The notes under the pieces are model-generated. The model had not been told where the DNA came from, ran no database searches, and was given only the letters and a program-made list of their open reading frames with translations. A DNA stretch of 64,000 nucleotides from an uncultured bacterium (GTDB lineage Bacteria > Patescibacteriota > Minisyncoccia > UBA6257 > GWB1-50-10): positions 5,403 to 69,402 of the forward strand of contig CAIKKG010000027.1 of the NCBI GenBank assembly GCA_903827975.1, written 5' to 3'. The stretch's first letter is position 1; every line of letters starts with the position of its first letter. Position numbers and translations under genes: made by a program. Positions 3,679 through 21,425 of the stretch are shown here, in pieces.

Positions 3679-5577
3679 TTATATTTCTATAATAACCGGC
3701 AGTATCATTGGTCTTCGTTTCGTCTTGTTAAAGAGGAATAAACCAATCTGGTCGCGAATAAGAGTTTTTAAATAATCAGGGTCAAGATTTTCTCTATTTG
3801 GAATTCTTCCTATGATATTCCTGATTCTTTTCCTTACCTCTTCCAGTAATTCCTGATTCTCCTTCAGATAAATAAATCCGCGAGAAATAATATCAGGATT
3901 TTTTAGAATTTTTCCGTCCTGTTTAGCGAGTGTTGTTATTATGACAACCATACCTTCCTGTGAGAGGGTAATGCGATCGCGCAAAACAATCTCACCTACA
4001 TCACCGACGCCAAGTCCATCAACCATAACGTAAGCTGATTCAACCTGCTCGTCAGTTTTTATAACCTTATCTGAATATAGTTCAACGACATGACCATTAT
4101 CCGTTAGGATTGTATTTTCAGGTTTAAGTCCTATGGCCTCCTGTGCTGTTCTGGCATTTCTCCAACGCAAGAAATAATATCCATGCATAGGAATAAAGTG
4201 CTTAGGCTTAACAAGTTCTATAACAGCCCTTAATTCTCCCTGAGGTGCGTGACCGGATGAGTGAATGCTAAGCATCTTGTTGTGATAAACAAGAGCTCCC
4301 TGACGCGCAAAGTTATCGCGCAATGTCTGGACTCCGCGCTCATTTCCAGGAATTACTCCTGAAGACAAGACAACACTGTCACCTGACCTTAGTTTGATGT
4401 GCTTGTGTTCGCCGTTTGCGATGCGCATAAAGCTTCCGTTTGGTTCGCCTTGTGAGCCAGTGCAAAGGAGCATTAATTTATTGTCCTTGTGTTTGTGAAT
4501 TTCTTCGAGCGGAATGAATGTATCTTTTTTAAACTTAAGGTAGCCAAGGTTTTGAGCAATCTGCAGGTTCGTCTTCATTGAGAGTCCGCTTATTGCAACC
4601 TTTCTGCCTAGTTTTTCAGCAATCTTTATAATCTCACCCAATCTGTCTAAGAGTGATGAGAATGTTCCAACAAGAATGCGTCCTTCAGCGGCTGCAAAAA
4701 CTTTCTCAAGTTCTGCCTCAACAACGCGCTCAGACATTGATAATCCTGGCACCTCAGCATTTGTTGAATCAAGAAGAAGCGTGTGGATGCCTTCTTCTCC
4801 AACGCGCTTCCATGTTTCTATGCCAAGTGGTTTTCCGTCCGTATCATAATCAAATTTAAATTCTCCCGGGTGAACAACATTTCCTATTGGCGTTCGGAAA
4901 ATAATTCCTATTCCATCTGGAATGTTGTGAACCACATCAAAGAATGTTGCAGAAAAATATCTACCAAACTGATGAGTCTCTCCACCTTTAACAAGTTGGA
5001 ATCTCGGCTTTGGAGCGTTTGGAAAATCTTCCTGTCGTTTTAAAATAATTTCTTTTGATAAAAGAGTTGTGTAAATTGGTGGATTACCAAGCTTTTCCAT
5101 GATGTGGGGGATTGCTCCAATGTGATCATAGTGTGCGTGGGTAATAACCATCGCCTTAATTTTATTTCTGCTTTGTTCAAGATATGTGATGTTCGGAATT
5201 ATGTAGTCTACTCCGGGAGTATTTTCTTCTGGAAATCCAAGTCCGGCATCAATAATAATGATTTCATCTTTATACTCCATCATCATCATGTTGCGGCCGA
5301 TTTCTCCGAATCCGCCCAAAGCAATGAAGCGAAGTGGTTCTTCACCACTTACGTGTTTTGGTGCTGTGCGCTGTAAAACAGGCAATGCTGCGCGCGTAGG
5401 TCGTGGACGTGTGTTCCTATAACTCTCAGTCCTCCCACGTGAATGCGGGCGTGTTGCTGAGTGAGTATGAACTCCGTCGTGACTACCAGGCCTTGTTGTT
5501 GCCTTGGTATGCGTATGTGGACTTTTATGTTGATTTGTTGACCCGTGTTCTCGGGGTTTTTGTGGTTGTGTTACCAT
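3679..5577 (-). CDS. rnj: Ribonuclease J with ~80-aa low-complexity N-terminal extension
   Basis: LGGFGEIGRNM, THAHYDHIG, HSSGHA, RRPMILPVIIEI. Confidence 0.95.
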   Translation of the reverse strand: MVTQPQKPREHGSTNQHKSPHTHTKATTRPGSHDGVHTHSATRPHSRGRTESYRNTRPRPTRAALPVLQRTAPKHVSGEEPLRFIALGGFGEIGRNMMMMEYKDEIIIIDAGLGFPEENTPGVDYIIPNITYLEQSRNKIKAMVITHAHYDHIGAIPHIMEKLGNPPIYTTLLSKEIILKRQEDFPNAPKPRFQLVKGGETHQFGRYFSATFFDVVHNIPDGIGIIFRTPIGNVVHPGEFKFDYDTDGKPLGIETWKRVGEEGIHTLLLDSTNAEVPGLSMSERVVEAELEKVFAAAEGRILVGTFSSLLDRLGEIIKIAEKLGRKVAISGLSMKTNLQIAQNLGYLKFKKDTFIPLEEIHKHKDNKLMLLCTGSQGEPNGSFMRIANGEHKHIKLRSGDSVVLSSGVIPGNERGVQTLRDNFARQGALVYHNKMLSIHSSGHAPQGELRAVIELVKPKHFIPMHGYYFLRWRNARTAQEAIGLKPENTILTDNGHVVELYSDKVIKTDEQVESAYVMVDGLGVGDVGEIVLRDRITLSQEGMVVIITTLAKQDGKILKNPDIISRGFIYLKENQELLEEVRKRIRNIIGRIPNRENLDPDYLKTLIRDQIGLFLFNKTKRRPMILPVIIEI

Positions 5578-14826: not shown

Positions 14827-15355
14827 CTAATTTTTCCTTTAGTTGTTTTAATGCTCTGTGCTGAATAACTCTAACAGCCCCCTCAGTCTTTCCCATTATC
14901 TCTGCTATCTCACCATTTGAAAGTTCTTCAACGAATTTCATGAGAAGCACGTTCTGCTGATCTGTTTCAAGTTTCGCAAGTGCAACCTTCACCACTCCTA
15001 TATCAATCGCCGTATCTATCCTATCCTCATCCCCAGGGCTTTCAGAGAAGAATTCCTCTGGTACCTGATCAATACTTATGTTTGGTTTGGAAGTCCGGTA
15101 AAAATCAATCACTGCATTTCCGGCTATCCTATATAACCAACTTGAGAAGGGGAATCCCTTAAACTCGTAGTTTGCTATATTTTGCCAAGCGCTCGAAAAG
15201 ACCTGTTGCGTTATATCCTCGGCATCCTGTTTTCTCTGAACCTTTAAAAAAACGAATCTGTATATCTTCGCAAGGTGCAGATCATATAGTTTGCCAAAGG
15301 CGGCGCCATCGCCGTTCTTCGCCTTTTCAATGAGCAATTGTTCTTCGTCTTTCAT
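14813..15355 (-). CDS. ECF RNA polymerase sigma factor (start reassigned to 15355)
   Basis: AFGKLYD, DAEDITQQVF, FSSWLYRIAGN, EIAEIMGKTEGAVRVIQHRA. Confidence 0.93.
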   Translation of the reverse strand: MKDEEQLLIEKAKNGDGAAFGKLYDLHLAKIYRFVFLKVQRKQDAEDITQQVFSSAWQNIANYEFKGFPFSSWLYRIAGNAVIDFYRTSKPNISIDQVPEEFFSESPGDEDRIDTAIDIGVVKVALAKLETDQQNVLLMKFVEELSNGEIAEIMGKTEGAVRVIQHRALKQLKEKLDDKH

Positions 15356-15361
15356 ATATAG

Positions 15362-15386
15362 AACGAATAAGTTTAGATTTTGTTTC
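15362..15386 (-). promoter_or_regulatory. ECF-type promoter GAAAC-N16-CGTT (autoregulatory, leaderless)
   Basis: Ends 6 nt before the sigma ATG; the same motif occurs at 23111-23135 and 35226-35250. Confidence 0.65.
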
Positions 15387-15649
15387 GCCAATGTGGCATA
15401 AACACTATTTGTTACATAGGAGTAATTTGTAACGCCTTGTAACACAACCTATTTCGAACTTAATTTTAGCAAAATAACGAGCATTAGTCCATGTAAGTGC
15501 GAATTATGCTAGATAAATGCAGTGTAGTTGTAACTAGGTCTGTTTTTTGCCTTGCTATAAAAATAAGCCAAAAATATTTTGATTTTAACTTATTATCTTT
15601 TAAGTATTGTGGTCTGAGGTTGGGTTGCTAGAACCGACCAAATATAAAT

Positions 15650-15785
15650 CCCATAAATGGGGATTTCTTGGAGCGGGTAAGGGGAATCTCCTTCGCCTCT
15701 CAACTCGTCGTCACTCATCTCGGGCTAGGCACCGCCTCACTGTGTGCACTACTGAGTGCACACAGTTCCGGCGTCCGATTCCCCT
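15650..15785 (-). repeat. tRNA-Gly-associated element, family A (antisense T-arm, core, duplicated tRNA 3' end and terminator)
   Basis: 39-bp direct repeat 15650-15688 = 15796-15834; 13-nt inverted T-arm copy at 15773-15785; core homologous to 19060-19142. Confidence 0.85.
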
Positions 15786-15814
15786 AAGCAAAATCCCCAT
15801 AAATGGGGATTTCT

Positions 15815-15888
15815 TGGAGCGGGTAAGGGGAATCGGACCCCTGGCGCCAGTTTGGAAAACTGGGGTATTACCACTATACGATACCCGC
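15815..15888 (-). tRNA. tRNA-Gly(TCC)
   Basis: GCGGGTA acceptor, CCAGT-TTTCCAA-ACTGG, variant T-loop GTCCGA, encoded CCA. Confidence 0.95.
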
Positions 15889-16013
15889 GACTCCTTGTTT
15901 GACTAGAATAGGATACAAAATTATTCGAGAACCCGCAAGATGTATAAGGGCCTAAATAATTGAATTAGTTTTGTTTTTGACTTATGATGGGTTGAGACAA
16001 ATAAGGTAAATAT

Positions 16014-16622
16014 ATGTTAAATAACAAGCAAACAAAGATGGTTGCGGTTGGCAGTGTGCTTTTCCTTGTGTTGCTTTTTACATCTCTATACTTCATGCGT
16101 AGTGGCGGCGGATCGCCAGAAGCAAATCTTCCTCAGACATTTTTGCTTTCGAGAAAAACAGCAGCACTTATTAGTCAGAATATTGTAGACCTCACAAATA
16201 AAACAGGTGAGAAAATTTCTTCTGCAAATACAGCAGACTTAGCAGGTGATAGAGCTCGAGCAAGTTCGCTTATTTTAGAGGCTCAAAATACGAATGTTGA
16301 AGCAAGTCGCGCCGCATCTCAATTGGCGGGACAGTTGAAAGTTCTTACTGAGTCACTTGCAACAATGAGTTCAGTGAGCAGTCAGAGACTTGCGTATGAA
16401 GCAGTTGCAACGGAGTTGGCATTGGTTTCTGAGTTTGTTGTTTATACGCAAAACTTAAATGAATTTTTGGAGAAACTTCTAGTGTCTATGGAAACCGATA
16501 CAAAAGTAAGTAAAGCGGACATCGCATCGTCTCTCACGGCTACAAATAAAAGCGCGAGAAAAATAAATTCACTGAATGCTGAGTTTAGCGACAGGATGGC
16601 GAAGTTAGATAAATCGTTCTAA
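16014..16622 (+). CDS. Membrane-anchored helical hypothetical protein
   Basis: N-terminal TM, 202 aa, terminator at ~16626-16655. Confidence 0.7.
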   Translation: MLNNKQTKMVAVGSVLFLVLLFTSLYFMRSGGGSPEANLPQTFLLSRKTAALISQNIVDLTNKTGEKISSANTADLAGDRARASSLILEAQNTNVEASRAASQLAGQLKVLTESLATMSSVSSQRLAYEAVATELALVSEFVVYTQNLNEFLEKLLVSMETDTKVSKADIASSLTATNKSARKINSLNAEFSDRMAKLDKSF

Positions 16623-16660
16623 ATATCAAAAAAGCCCTTTCGGGCTTTTTTGATACTGTG

Positions 16661-16732
16661 TCCCCTCGGAGGGAATCGAACCCCCATCAAGACCTTAGAA
16701 GAGTCCTGCTTTATCCATTAAGCTACGAGGGG
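16661..16732 (-). tRNA. tRNA-Arg(TCT)
   Basis: CCCCTCG/CGAGGGG acceptor, GGACT-CTTCTAA-GGTCT, GGTTCGATTCC. Confidence 0.93.
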
Positions 16733-16788
16733 TTAATGAACAAAATTGATTCTAAACGAAAAGTAATGTAATTTAAAGACCTGTGGTT

Positions 16789-16859
16789 CGGAGCGTAGTA
16801 TACCGGCAGTACACCTACCTTGGGCGTAGGCAGACCGGGTTCAATTCCCGGCGCTCCGA
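16789..16859 (+). tRNA. tRNA-Pro(TGG)
   Basis: CGGAGCG/CGCTCCG acceptor, CCTAC-CTTGGGC-GTAGG, GGTTCAATTCC. Confidence 0.93.
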
Positions 16860-16903
16860 CTAACAAAAAAATAAGACCTAATTCGGGTCTTATTTTTTAT
16901 CCC

Positions 16904-17070
16904 GCGCTGGGAATTGAACGGGAAGGGGGTCGGGGAAACAGGAGTTTCCACGTGGCGGAAGTATTGAAACCGCTGGGTTTCAAAAATTTTGCGAATACAA
17001 AATTTGTTTACTTCCCGGCGCTCCGACTAACAAAAAAATAAGACCTAATTCGGGTCTTATTTTTTTATCC
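16904..17070 (+). repeat. tRNA-Pro-associated element, family B (antisense T-arm, core, duplicated tRNA 3' end and terminator)
   Basis: 54-bp direct repeat 16845-16898 = 17012-17065; 15/16 inverted T-arm copy at 16904-16919; core homologous to 21351-21400. Confidence 0.85.
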
Positions 17071-17114
17071 TCATTTGGATTTTGTTAACACCTCAATAAA
17101 AAAAACTCAACGTA

Positions 17115-17888
17115 CTAACGCGTTGGCCTTTTAATTAATAGACTTATAAAGAATATCGCTGAACTTACGAGCGCGGTTGCGAAGCTCGGATTAATTGGAT
17201 AAATGCGTGATATTACGAGACCTGAGAGAAGTGCAATGACCGCAAGTCCAATACTAAGAGTTATAAATCCTTTAAATGACCCGGCAATGTTTTTTGCGGT
17301 TACTGATGGAATTATAAGAAGTGCACTCATTAGTAAAACTCCCACAAAACTAATTCCGACCGCGATTGTGAGTGCAATAAGAATAAGTAGTAGCAATTCC
17401 ATTTTTGGTTGAGAGATGCGAGATGATGTTGCAAGGTCTGGTGCAATTGATGATAGGGCGAGTGGTTTCAAAAGATAAAGAGCTGTTGCGATTATTCCGA
17501 TTGATATCACGGCCTGAGCTAGAGCCTGTTCTAGGGTTATATTTTGAGCATTGCCGAAAAATGCTTCTAGTAAATCTTGCTCTGGTATTAAGAGTGCGCC
17601 CAAGGAAAGTGCAGTTACAAATAGCACTCCAGTAATTGATTCAACGGCTAGCCTTGTTTTCATCTCTATATACCAAATAAGAAGAACACCAACAAATAGC
17701 AGTGCCACTCCACCAAACAAAGGATTAAATTTAAATACTATTCCAATTGCTATGCCTGGAAGTGCGACGTGTGAGAGTGCATCAGAAAGTAGCGTCATCT
17801 TTCTAAGTGTTAGAAGTGAACCTACAATTCCACTTGCTGCAGCAACTAGAATTCCCGAAAGAGTTGTTAGTGTTAAAAGTTCTGTCAT
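17115..17888 (-). CDS. znuB: Zn/Mn ABC transporter permease
   Basis: LRKMTLLSDALSHVALPGIA, VGVLLMSALLIIP. Confidence 0.88.
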   Translation of the reverse strand: MTELLTLTTLSGILVAAASGIVGSLLTLRKMTLLSDALSHVALPGIAIGIVFKFNPLFGGVALLFVGVLLIWYIEMKTRLAVESITGVLFVTALSLGALLIPEQDLLEAFFGNAQNITLEQALAQAVISIGIIATALYLLKPLALSSIAPDLATSSRISQPKMELLLLILIALTIAVGISFVGVLLMSALLIIPSVTAKNIAGSFKGFITLSIGLAVIALLSGLVISRIYPINPSFATALVSSAIFFISLLIKRPTR

Positions 17889-17892
17889 GATA

Positions 17893-18633
17893 TTAGGCTT
17901 TGTCTTCGTGCTCGGGTTTCGCGTCTATTTTTATTGTTCCATAATCGTGATCATGGTGGAAAAATGTCTGGTCCTTGTATAGAGAGGAAAGCTTATCAAC
18001 TGTAAGCTCATCTTCCGGTTGTCCGTAGCAGACCATTTTCTGATTTAAACAAAGCACATTATTTGCATATCGATACACAGCATGAAGGTCATGCGAAATA
18101 ATTAGTAATGCAACACCAATTGAGTCTTGTAGTGTGTGTAATAAAGAGTAGATAGATTCCTGGCCAACAACGTCAACGTTTTCTGTTGGTTCATCAAATA
18201 AAAGAATCTGAGGATTATCTAAAAGCGACCACGCGAGTAATATTCTTTGGAGCTGTCCACTGGAGAGGTGTGCAAGTTTGCGACTGAGCCAACTCGTATC
18301 CACTTTTACCAACTTCAATGCTTTCTCATTCGTCATCTCACGAGTTGGTTTAAGGTTAAGAAATTCAGCAACCGTCATCGGAAGATATAAATCTACATGA
18401 AAGCGTTGCGGTAGGTATCCTACGCGGATGTTTGGCGCCCATTCTATCTTGCCCTCGGTTGGTTTTATTATTCCAAGTAGTGTTTTCAAGAGAACTGACT
18501 TGCCGGCGCCGTTTGGACCGATGATTGCGAGCACTTGTTCCTTGTCTAATGAAAAAGAAACATTGCTCAATATCTTATTGTCTCCAATGGTTACCGAGAG
18601 GTCTTCAACTTTTAATAATTGTGTTTCACTCAT
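17893..18633 (-). CDS. znuC: Zn/Mn ABC transporter ATPase
   Basis: GPNGAGKS, GYLPQ, LSSGQLQR, FDEPT, His-rich C-terminus. Confidence 0.88.
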   Translation of the reverse strand: MSETQLLKVEDLSVTIGDNKILSNVSFSLDKEQVLAIIGPNGAGKSVLLKTLLGIIKPTEGKIEWAPNIRVGYLPQRFHVDLYLPMTVAEFLNLKPTREMTNEKALKLVKVDTSWLSRKLAHLSSGQLQRILLAWSLLDNPQILLFDEPTENVDVVGQESIYSLLHTLQDSIGVALLIISHDLHAVYRYANNVLCLNQKMVCYGQPEDELTVDKLSSLYKDQTFFHHDHDYGTIKIDAKPEHEDKA

Positions 18634-18686
18634 TTTGACTTATGACTATGTTATTGATTATACTGGAATTGTTTGAAAAACGAATA

Positions 18687-18981
18687 GCCGCGGTAGCTCA
18701 GCGGTAGAGCGCAGCCCTAAACTCTTTGGGGCGCGACTCGGTAACGAGTCGATGAAAATCGGGTGAACTCGGGGAAAACTTTCTTAATGGAAAAAAGAAA
18801 ACAATCCCGAACCAAGCTCTGTAGGGCATAAAGGTTACAGAGAAGGCGTAGAGACTAGCGGGTGAGTCCCAACAATAATCCTGCAAATAGCGCCCGACAT
18901 CCTAAATATTAGGATGATGAGATAGTCCAAATTCAGCCTTGGAAGAGGCTGGCGTCGGGGGTTCAACTCCCTCCCGCGGCA
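18687..18981 (+). tRNA. tRNA-Phe(GAA) interrupted by a group I intron (exons 18687-18718 and 18942-18981)
   Basis: Joined exons give GCCGCGG/CCGCGGC-A acceptor, CAGCC-CT|GAAGA-GGCTG anticodon arm and GGTTCAACTCC T-arm. Confidence 0.9.
18719..18941 (+). ncRNA. Group I self-splicing intron, 223 nt, inserted after U33
   Basis: P1 GCCCU/GGGGC with U.G at the 5' splice site, P2 GACTCG-GTAA-CGAGTC, P3 TCGGGTG/CGCCCGA, P7 GAGACTA/TAGTCC, P8 CATCCT/AGGATG, terminal G, P10 CTCTTT/GAAGAG. Confidence 0.88.
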
Positions 18982-19011
18982 CAATAAAAACCCCGTAAGG
19001 GGTTTTTTATT

Positions 19012-19190
19012 TGCCACGGGAAACCTCGCAATTTATTGCGAAGTGTTCGGGAGTTGAACGCCGGAGCGTATCACGCTCAGTAGTGTGTGATGCGAGGCGG
19101 TGCCCAACCCGAGGTGAGTGAAGACGAACTGAGAGGTTAGGGCAACTCCCTCCCGCGGCACAATAAAAACCCCGTCGATTGACGGGGTTT
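19012..19190 (+). repeat. tRNA-Phe-associated element, family A
   Basis: 33-bp direct repeat 18964-18996 = 19143-19175; inverted tRNA 3' copy at 19012-19021 plus 19049-19059; core homologous to 15689-15772. Confidence 0.85.
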
Positions 19191-19197
19191 TGTTTTA

Positions 19198-19491
19198 TTA
19201 AGATAGGTTGATGTGCGGAGTAAGTGCCTTCACAATGGCAATATTTGCGAGACACGTGTCGCAAATGCCACCGACCTGAGTCGCGTGAACTGAGGAGTAA
19301 TTCCATGGAATGCTCTGTCTTTGAATGAGTAGTCTTCCACCCATGGTGCAGTAATCCGTGTACTCCTTGTACTCGCACCCAGAGCGCTCTGGAGCTTCTG
19401 TTAGTGCGCGACGATGTTCAACTCTTTTCTCAACAATCTCAGACTCCATACACACCACACACAGGTAGCGCTTTTCTTGTGGTACACTCAC
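19198..19491 (-). CDS. Small CxxC...CxxC putative zinc-binding protein (paralog 1)
   Basis: GTG start with AAAGGAGG SD; RYLCVVC...GGICDTCL. Confidence 0.7.
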   Translation of the reverse strand: MSVPQEKRYLCVVCMESEIVEKRVEHRRALTEAPERSGCEYKEYTDYCTMGGRLLIQRQSIPWNYSSVHATQVGGICDTCLANIAIVKALTPHINLS

Positions 19492-19599
19492 ACATCCTCC
19501 TTTAGGATAAGAACTGCAAATAACCTAACATCCGTATTTGTATATAGCAAGTAAAATTAATTTAAATAAAAACCCCGTCGATTGACGGGGATTTATAAT

Positions 19600-21223: not shown

Positions 21224-21296
21224 GGTGCCTATGGTGTAAAGGTTAACACTGGAGTTTGTGGAACTCTCGATTCGGGTTCAATTCCCGATAGGCACC
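21224..21296 (+). tRNA. tRNA-His(GTG) with encoded G-1
   Basis: G-GTGCCTA/TAGGCAC-C, GGAGT-TTGTGGA-ACTCT, GGTTCAATTCC. Confidence 0.95.
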
Positions 21297-21335
21297 CAGA
21301 AAAAGAAAACCCCGAGTGGGGTTTTTCTTTTTATT

Positions 21336-21425
21336 TATCGGGAATTGAACTGGAAGGGGGTCGGGGAAACTTAAGTTTCCCCGTGGTGGAAGCATTGAAC
21401 CGCCGGCAAACTATTTGTTCGAGAG
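21336..21425 (+). repeat. tRNA-His-associated element, family B (no 3' duplication seen)
   Basis: 15-nt perfect inverted T-arm copy at 21336-21350, then GGAAGGGGGTCGGGGAAAC..GTTTCC.CGTGG.GGAAG.ATTGAA shared with the Pro element. Confidence 0.8.

Follow-up and report, generated by a model that had tools for sequence, protein, structure and literature searches.

A conserved folded core in gene-less inserts at the T-loop of tRNA genes in Patescibacteria, likely mobile through a folded single strand

Introduction

The window analyzed here, by which we mean the whole stretch of 64,000 nucleotides at positions 5,403 to 69,402 (forward strand) of contig CAIKKG010000027.1, assembly GCA_903827975.1, derives from an uncultured bacterium of the Patescibacteriota (Minisyncoccia; UBA6257; GWB1-50-10). 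Two of its tRNA genes, tRNA-Gly(TCC) on the minus strand and tRNA-Phe(GAA) on the plus strand, are each followed on their own strand by a short insert, and the two inserts share a core, here called family A, in which an initial annotation had seen the compensatory changes typical of a structured RNA. Our findings point to the family A core as the conserved base-paired centre of a gene-less insert that sits at the T-loop of tRNA and transfer-messenger RNA (tmRNA) genes of Patescibacteria and is likely mobile by way of a folded single strand, a reading to which we assign a probability of about 0.6. The more general proposition, of a structured element without genes that moves and has the T-loop as its target, is one that we advance with considerable confidence, and the folded mini-inserts of tRNA genes to which it belongs apparently constitute a large and so far undescribed family. 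In what follows G000 is the label of the window's own genome, and other numbers with G or L denote the compared genomes and loci.

Organization of the inserts

Read in the tRNA sense, the layout consists of an intact tRNA gene, often a terminator, a left arm (A-left), a hairpin (P0), a right arm (A-right), the core, a single base and a duplicate of the tRNA beginning at nucleotide 56 or 57; full units span 115-200 nt and contain no genes. The statistics on the flanks draw on 85 hits of a covariance model, 80 of which have an assigned tRNA, a same-strand gene 12-422 nt upstream of the core, with 31 anticodon species represented among them. The other five comprise one copy behind a tmRNA, one behind a tRNA-Trp that is cut by the contig end and has another element in between, two that touch contig ends and one that is unassigned.

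Both arms are derived from the target. A-right, the 11 nt on the 5' side of the core, is antisense to nucleotides 53-63 of the adjacent tRNA, matching it perfectly in 36 of the 80 copies and with at most one mismatch in 69, as against 18% at the same threshold when compared with other tRNAs. A-left is a 9-mer lying 24-27 nt upstream of A-right and antisense to nucleotides 64-72; at most two mismatches are found in 31/80 copies, compared with 6.9% against other tRNAs, and the match is never perfect, the changes being mostly G to A and the arm often decayed or absent. In most copies the duplicate begins at nucleotide 56 or 57; it repeats nucleotides 57-72 without a mismatch in 32/80 and often extends into locus-specific downstream sequence, its length being about 20 to 80 nt. 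P0, placed between the two arms, keeps a constant form with a 9-bp stem and a 4-nt loop. When folded, the strand between G53 of the intact tRNA gene and the core adopts a Y (77 folds), in which nucleotides 53-63 pair with A-right (73/77), nucleotides 64-72 together with the trailer pair with A-left and place the native terminator at the tip (44/77), and P0 forms the third branch, at 63|64. A-right can accordingly be drawn with either of two partners, the downstream duplicate, with which it makes up the closing helix P1, or the real tRNA. At the Gly locus of the window, the hairpin that occupies the P0 position belongs to a 44-nt duplicated target, and an orthologous terminator is found at the empty site of G009. 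The coordinates of both inserts are collected in Table 1.

Table 1. Host genes, arms, cores and target duplicates of the two family A inserts in the window.
Feature	Position	Strand	Basis or remark
tRNA-Gly(TCC), intact host gene	15815..15888	-	ARAGORN; Rfam tRNA 59.4 bits
Upstream copy of the duplicated Gly target, tRNA-Gly nucleotides 57-76	15815-15834	-	ARAGORN; Rfam
Terminator-like hairpin AAAUCCCC-AUUUAU-GGGGAUUU, directly 3' of tRNA-Gly, in the P0 position	15791..15814	-	Sequence, fold
A-right AGGGGAAUCGGAC, 5' strand of P1	15773..15785	-	Exact reverse complement of tRNA-Gly 53-65; 0 mismatches, 11 nt scored
Gly family A core, 83 nt; P2 CGCC/GGCG, P3 loop UCAGUA, P4 with two C-GA-G loops	15690..15772	-	
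Junction base A (15689) and displaced tRNA-Gly 57-76 duplicate (15669-15688)	15669..15689	-	P1 3' strand; mismatches 0/16
Second copy of the post-tRNA hairpin, one base missing	15646..15668	-	End of the 44-nt target duplication
tRNA-Phe(GAA), host gene, with group I intron 18719-18941	18687..18982	+	Rfam RF00028 70.3 bits; ARAGORN intron option
Terminator hairpin after tRNA-Phe	18983..19012	+	Centre of a long interrupted palindrome, from acceptor strand to A-left
A-left GCCACGGGA	19013..19021	+	Reverse complement of tRNA-Phe 64-72, 1 mismatch
P0 hairpin CCUCGCAAUUUAUUGCGAAG, branch between A-left and A-right	19024..19043	+	Fold
A-right GGGAGUUGAAC	19049..19059	+	Reverse complement of tRNA-Phe 53-63, 0 mismatches
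Phe family A core, 83 nt	19060..19142	+	71% identical to the Gly copy
Displaced tRNA-Phe duplicate, nucleotide 56 to 3' end, then terminator	19143..19193	+	Repeat exact over 33 nt

Conserved fold of the core

The sequences quoted for the Gly and Phe copies in the initial annotation are both present in the window, though the lengths given there, 84 and 83 nt, need correction to 83 nt for each core. The 24 differences among the 83 positions fall into the hairpin P3 (15) and the stem P4 (9), and the linkers, which had been described as nearly invariant, contain none at all. Eight of the nine differences in P4 are at paired positions; this stem shows three two-sided swaps (U-A to C-G, G-C to A-U and A-U to G-C), in agreement with the compensatory changes reported for it earlier, together with one change from G-U to A-U and one from an A/G mismatch to A-U. 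The first stem had been said to pair around TCAGTA in both copies, and this is correct for the Gly copy, where the loop is UCAGUA, but not for the Phe copy, in which folding shifts the register two bases 3', with CGUAUCACGC pairing to GUGUGAUGCG around the loop UCAGUAGU. The likeness of the two copies is beyond chance, as judged by a BLAST search of G000 with the Gly copy, which returns the Phe copy at E = 1.6e-9, by folding z-scores of -4.6 to -7.0 for the copies, with 0/200 shuffles folding equally well, and by the more than 150 further copies that were retrieved with a covariance model built from these two sequences alone. Strain variants were also seen in the Gly core, at window positions 15722, 15745, 15757 and 15763 (runs X6, X7, X8 and X16); they amount to two A-U to G-U changes in P3 (tRNA-sense), one change that creates an A-C mismatch in P3 and one change located in P4.

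Across copies, the core is a three-way junction whose linkers do not vary and whose stems covary, its parts following one another as the closing helix P1, the linker GAA, P2 (CGCC/GGCG), P3, the linker GUG and P4. P3 is a GC-clamped hairpin with a 2-nt bulge and a loop that reads CAGYAG across copies, while the rod-like P4 contains tandem C-GA-G internal loops and lacks its apex in some copies; a double compensatory change in L022 fixes the register of P2. Some copies of 140-168 nt, at L020 (G008), L046 (G009), L132, L146 and loci of G105 and G309, owe their extra length to an added hairpin between the halves of P2 or at the apex of a stem, and the junction tolerates such extra helices.

The initial annotation had argued that selection acts on a single-stranded fold and had proposed covariation in a larger alignment as the means of checking it, and in this respect it is borne out. 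For an alignment of 32 family copies RNAalifold predicts a structure of 31 pairs, and changes on both sides are seen in 29. In the same 32 copies 94.4% of cells are paired, compared with 73.9% in shuffled controls (0/500 reach the observed value) and 36-49% when the partners are slid by 1-3 columns, and in 61 copies taken from named records that lie outside the training family the corresponding values are 94.6% and 71.2%, with two-sided changes in 27 of the 31 pairs; since fitting to the covariance model biases the alignments towards its structure, and since the copies are related to one another, these shuffle figures are not probabilities and the control overstates significance. All seven pairs of P3 covary although P3 was absent from the structure of the first model, and P3 is therefore no artefact of fitting. 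In the core helices G-U pairs outnumber A-C oppositions by 53 to 15, whereas P1 and the arms show 16 and 19, and the excess in the core indicates that the fold has been selected on the tRNA-sense strand. This excess fixes the strand, but it is compatible with RNA and single-stranded DNA alike.

Database comparisons returned no known family for this structure, as the scan of Rfam suggested in the initial annotation also shows. At gathering thresholds the only Rfam hits in the window are five tRNAs and the group I intron, none of them on the core, and with E up to 10 nothing credible was found on either core within 15300-19500, where the best overlapping match, rnk_pseudo, scores 35 bits against a gathering threshold of 55 and lies mostly on the terminator. 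The alternative that the core might be a fragment of a known coding or insertion sequence found no support, in that the open reading frames overlapping the elements (99, 123 and 97 aa) match no Pfam family and blastn against 50,697 phage records gave no match. A pattern scan of the viral contigs in IMG/VR yielded three exact matches with a best model score of 15.5 bits and no tRNA nearby, which we take as chance.

Distribution of family A and of related inserts

An exact IUPAC pattern recovered only the window's own two copies from the 96 genomes of the family, and because it was too strict, covariance models were used instead, the first being the two-copy model and a refined one being made later. 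With the two-copy model 41 of the 96 genomes are matched, each 1 to 18 times, and a third family A copy is found in the window's own genome (G000:C14:72459-72573). Copy number reaches 19 in a genome of about 0.7 Mb, the maximum being that of G043. At the level of the order, 30 of 151 sampled genomes and 16 of 32 families carry family A, and at the level of the phylum 7 of 151 sampled genomes do so, G000 counted. Among the matches listed from a scan of one genome per species, the model confirmed 58 of the 80 loci fetched, and the titles of these records name Saccharibacteria, Paceibacterota/Parcubacteria, Uhrbacteria, Taylorbacteria, Portnoybacteria, Komeilibacteria, Nomurabacteria, Kaiserbacteria, Magasanikbacteria, Jorgensenbacteria and Gribaldobacteria. 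The remaining 22, which are high-GC records from outside the Patescibacteria, were not confirmed by the model and are taken as chance. At least six third-party metagenome-assembled genomes with a full-length family A are titled otherwise, five as Gammaproteobacteria and one as Bdellovibrionales (L108, L139, L162, L175, L187, L115); either their labels are wrong or the element occurs outside the Patescibacteria.

Family A is one of several cores that share the architecture. In G000 (0.76 Mb), 11 of the 50 tRNA and tmRNA genes carry such an insert, counted as an antisense T-arm with at most one mismatch followed by a later duplicate with at most three, and eight more have the antisense arm only. 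Only three of these 11 inserts are family A, and the others fall into two or more different core types. Family C, one such type, resembles family A in its CAGUAG loop, in the C-GA-G motif and in a 3' end GAGAGGC beside nucleotide 57. Within the window a family B element (about 16861-17035) lies behind tRNA-Pro(TGG) (16789-16860), with a core GGGAAGGGGGUCGGGGAAAC... of about 90 nt, an antisense T-arm 70 nt and a duplicate 171 nt after G53, and metagenome contigs break there. Behind tRNA-His(GTG) (21225-21297), at about 21300-21370, an exact 11-nt antisense T-arm occurs 64 nt after G53, but no duplicate could be recognised downstream of it; this may be a decayed or partial element.

Insertion sites and movement between tRNA genes

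The tRNA-Gly(TCC) locus in the window's genus offers a direct comparison of occupied and empty sites. In G009 the site is empty, consisting of the tRNA and its terminator only; family A is present in G000, G004 and G006, and in G005, G007 and G008 the place is taken by another core, roughly 130 nt long, with a contiguous 20-nt antisense arm. In G008 a terminator orthologous to that of the empty site follows the downstream copy, and it is therefore the downstream copy that represents the old end of the tRNA. For the empty allele itself, seven DNA runs gave no joint across the Gly site, the contigs breaking at the repeats.

The relationships among cores argue that the element moves, since the nearest relatives usually lie at different tRNAs. 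The most similar core was found at a different tRNA species for 69 of the 80 copies, 14 of these within the same genome, and at the same tRNA for 11. Within G004 the cores behind Gly and Phe are 96% identical and the arms fit each its own tRNA. Likewise, the cores of G093 Ala and G095 Val are 93% identical with P0 alike, and A-right differs at 3 of 11 positions, each version matching its own tRNA. Two or three elements may be stacked behind one tRNA, in which case the best-preserved unit adjoins the gene. Young copies duplicate 44-80 nt, including the locus-specific trailer and the terminator, and the duplication has been seen to end at a 4-nt microhomology with A-right (G000:C14), in the middle of the P0 palindrome (G004 Arg) and inside an older element (G026 Glu).

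Strain variants with larger sequences occur at the end of tRNA-Phe. In DNA run X6, a 9.8-kb contig carries 5,684 other letters in place of window 18984-19182, the interval that holds the family A element, and in runs X7 and X8 the flanks at this tRNA end run on into more than 1 kb of other sequence. A single metatranscriptome run (contigs, 61 million letters) had no contig over either element and is uninformative either way.

Discussion

The route of insertion that we favour begins with entry of the element at 56|57 of the tRNA-sense strand, whereby the old tRNA 3' end would be pushed downstream and a fresh copy would keep the gene whole, and it supposes that the arms are copied from the target at every insertion. 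The folded strand, with its arms rebuilding a T-arm duplex beside the core, would be the substrate of a strand-transfer enzyme that is probably encoded by the host, our leading guess being a Xer-type tyrosine recombinase, and repair synthesis that switches strands at the hairpins would produce both the duplicate and the antisense copy. The distance between 56|57 and 63|64 is 7 bp, and a spacing of 7 bp is typical of the cuts made by tyrosine recombinases. The variable, locus-specific duplication and the palindrome centred on the terminator go beyond strand exchange alone and look like the outcome of strand-switching repair synthesis. We propose this specific course of events, a single-strand transfer at 56|57 that is guided by the folded core and completed by template-switching synthesis, only tentatively. 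A bolder version, which we think improbable, would make the core itself a catalytic or self-guiding nucleic acid that acts independently of protein, finds any tRNA T-loop with its target-copied antisense arm, cuts and joins at 56|57 and is released at unit length, possibly as a circle.

Several observations weigh against a mobile element that transfers as a folded single strand. Among the candidate enzymes compared, none was linked to it. Reverse transcriptase (PF00078) shows no association with the element, since 21 of the 41 carriers have it as against 23 of the 55 genomes that lack the element, and genomes as rich in copies as G045 (18 copies), G026 (10), G078 (7) and G046 (7) are without it. 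The Y1 transposase PF01797 was found in none of the eight genomes of genus g1, the window's genus, all of which carry the element, nor was it found in the copy-rich G043, G045, G026 and G027. GIY-YIG domains, with 1-16 hits per genome, do not follow copy number, in that G043 with its 19 copies has one and several element-free genomes have 9-11. In the DNA examined no excised or circular form was seen. Site-specific strand exchange by itself leaves the variable-length, locus-specific duplication unexplained, and also the rewriting, at each new tRNA, of A-right, which lies between P0 and the core. The nearly identical cores of G004 are 1 kb apart, and gene conversion could account for some such pairs; the tRNA-Phe copies in several genera speak of long retention, which a host function would explain equally well. 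The fitting of the alignments to the covariance model, described above, belongs to the same account.

Some further results from these enzyme searches deserve mention. The Y2 transposase PF04986 was detected in 0/96 genomes, with control genomes likewise giving no signal, and no conserved box of the recombinase type was seen in the element beyond the T-loop sequence. The reverse transcriptase open reading frames of the family, of about 320-390 codons in 44 of the 96 genomes (for example G000:C16:559-1179), may be diversity-generating retroelements. Free-standing GIY-YIG mini-genes of about 85-140 codons also occur in the family, three of them within a few hundred bases of a tRNA with family A (G026:C46:5251-5460, G033:C1:22484-22693 and G045:C17:8058-8270).

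Comparison with known systems places the element near several of them without assigning it to any. The T-loop part of tRNA and tmRNA genes is a target of islands and prophages that encode tyrosine integrases and of their derivatives that have lost the integrase. Family A resembles these in using the 3' half of the gene as target, in restoring the gene with an element-borne end and in leaving the old end as a downstream direct repeat from the T-loop; it differs in that its units are 115-200 nt and gene-less, in that a single core family occupies 31 tRNA species, and in having an antisense copy of the target and a duplicate that includes variable locus-specific sequence. Rickettsia palindromic elements, mitochondrial GC clusters and double-hairpin elements are small selfish repeats for which no transposase is known. 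They are, like family A, short, GC-rich, folded and gene-less, numerous in reduced genomes and non-destructive within genes, but family A has a single target position at 56|57, direct and inverted arms derived from the target and linkers that are invariant across the phylum. With IS200/IS605 elements, their derivatives without open reading frames and repetitive extragenic palindromes (REP) it has in common single-strand hairpins, strand specificity and insertion beside a short motif, which here would be GTTC at nucleotides 53-56 with insertion after it; however, Y1 transposase is missing from all eight genomes of the window's genus and from the most copy-rich genomes, and family A duplicates its target whereas IS200/IS605 do not. 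Site-specific non-LTR elements of the R2 type and short interspersed elements (SINEs) would share co-transcription with a host RNA, an exact 3' junction and a variable target duplication, while family A shows neither a link to reverse transcriptase nor a tail and possesses an antisense target copy, which target-primed reverse transcription does not generate.

A parallel for the proposed route is provided by CTXphi. In the published account, its folded single-stranded attP(+) is joined to dif by the host XerCD recombinases and the intermediate is resolved by replication (PMC4246890), and the integration leaves the same order of parts, namely the 5' part of the target, the element-borne 3' part, an inverted copy, a loop and the old 3' part (PMC4246890). 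On that account, attP(+) (PMC4246890), like integron attC, uses an intra-strand hairpin to rebuild a duplex site, a single active strand and host enzymes, and integration leaves the inverted copy, the loop and the hybrid site grouped at one end; a stem that rebuilds the target is likewise present in family A, in 73/77 folds for A-right and 44/77 for A-left. Family A differs from both in having no dif-like or R-box sequence and no linked recombinase, and in that its stem is a copy of the T-arm that changes with each target and its apical part a conserved three-way junction.

These properties bear on how the genomes of Patescibacteria are viewed. Such ultra-small genomes are considered streamlined, and yet more than a fifth of the tRNA and tmRNA genes in G000 carry inserts; these inserts have no genes and match no known RNA family, and yet their fold is maintained by compensatory change across the phylum. 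In the openly accessible literature searched, no account was found of small non-coding inserts that combine an antisense copy of a tRNA end with a direct one, and within that same body of literature the way in which the arms are fitted afresh at every tRNA amounts to a form of target programming undescribed for small non-coding elements. Understanding how the element operates could bring to light a new route by which DNA or RNA moves, or else a new substrate of recombinases or a new ribozyme. Since the repeats break contigs, knowledge of the element would also improve annotation and assembly of tRNA regions.

Among other explanations, the one that survives best, though we consider it unlikely, is that the core is a host-serving RNA made from the tRNA co-transcript, a trailer or tRNA-like molecule whose arms pair with the 3' half of the tRNA. 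Such a molecule would serve as a decoy or take part in tRNA processing or quality control, and its dispersal to many tRNA genes would be secondary. The selection of the fold on the tRNA-sense strand, the invariance of the linkers across the phylum and the retention of the tRNA-Phe element in several genera all suit such an RNA, as do some 20 copies that lie only 23-30 nt from the tRNA without an intervening terminator. Many other copies, however, are preceded by a strong terminator, and a host function sits poorly with a patchy distribution of 0 to 19 copies per genome in which only 41 of 96 genomes participate, with sister species whose sites are empty, with unrelated cores in the same place, and with decayed copies and stacked arrays.

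The exact 3' junction, a duplication ranging from 20 to 80 nt, the fold on the sense strand and the reverse transcriptase genes in 44 of the 96 genomes would also be expected of a SINE-like retroelement, in which a nick at 56|57 would start target-primed reverse transcription of a tRNA co-transcript and a second nick, at a distance that varies, would yield the variable duplication. We regard this as quite unlikely, because reverse transcriptase is not associated with the element (21/41 against 23/55; none in G045, G026, G078 or G046), the antisense arm goes unexplained and terminators often stand between the tRNA and the element.

A self-cleaving and self-ligating ribozyme or viroid-like unit, in which A-right would guide cuts 5' of nucleotide 57 in both copies of the tRNA end and give rise to a unit-length, possibly circular RNA, appears very unlikely. 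It would fit the start of both direct repeats at the same nucleotide, the guide-like antisense arm, which abuts a compact three-way junction bearing tandem G-A motifs and linkers that do not vary, and the shared GAGAGGC with which families A and C both end beside nucleotide 57. Against it, no known class was matched in Rfam, the RNA run had no contig over the elements and so lends no RNA support, many copies have a terminator upstream, and a DNA copying step would still be required although reverse transcriptase does not track the element.

Least probable, to a degree that we consider remote, are decayed att-site remnants of larger integrase islands using the tRNA T-loop, for although a tRNA 3' end displaced from the T-loop is a classic attR signature, a tmRNA is targeted too and strain variants have larger inserts behind the same tRNA-Phe (5,684 letters in X6, more than 1 kb in X7 and X8), one core occurs at 31 tRNA species with arms matched to each, its structure is kept by covariation across the phylum, and the 115-200 nt units show no integrase fragment, the overlapping reading frames being without a Pfam domain.

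Four further candidates were rejected. A precise mimic of the acceptor/T minihelix formed by A-left, P0 and A-right does not fit, as P0 stands at 63|64 and not at 65|66 and the helices have 9 and 7 bp instead of 7 and 5. The idea of a primer-binding site was rejected because the antisense copy ends at nucleotide 72/73 and never covers the CCA. Inspection by eye for a hammerhead-like junction found the linkers GAA, GUG and one base and no CUGANGA, and a miniature inverted-repeat (MITE) or DDE transposon derivative is incompatible with inverted arms that are copies of the target and vary with the site and with a duplication of about 20 to 80 nt that is not of fixed length.

Two minor observations concern the tRNA genes and their duplicates. 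Within the duplicate of tRNA-Arg(GCG) at L057 (G004:C14), an additional GC-rich mini-hairpin of 17 nt, AACCCGCGAAGCGGGCT, stands in the 3' strand of the T-stem and looks like a separate tiny insertion. The group I intron of tRNA-Phe(GAA) sits in the anticodon loop, and a contig of DNA run X11 joins 18718 to 18942, skipping 223 nt; this joint indicates an intron-less tRNA-Phe allele in a related population and confirms the splice boundaries that had been set by eye.

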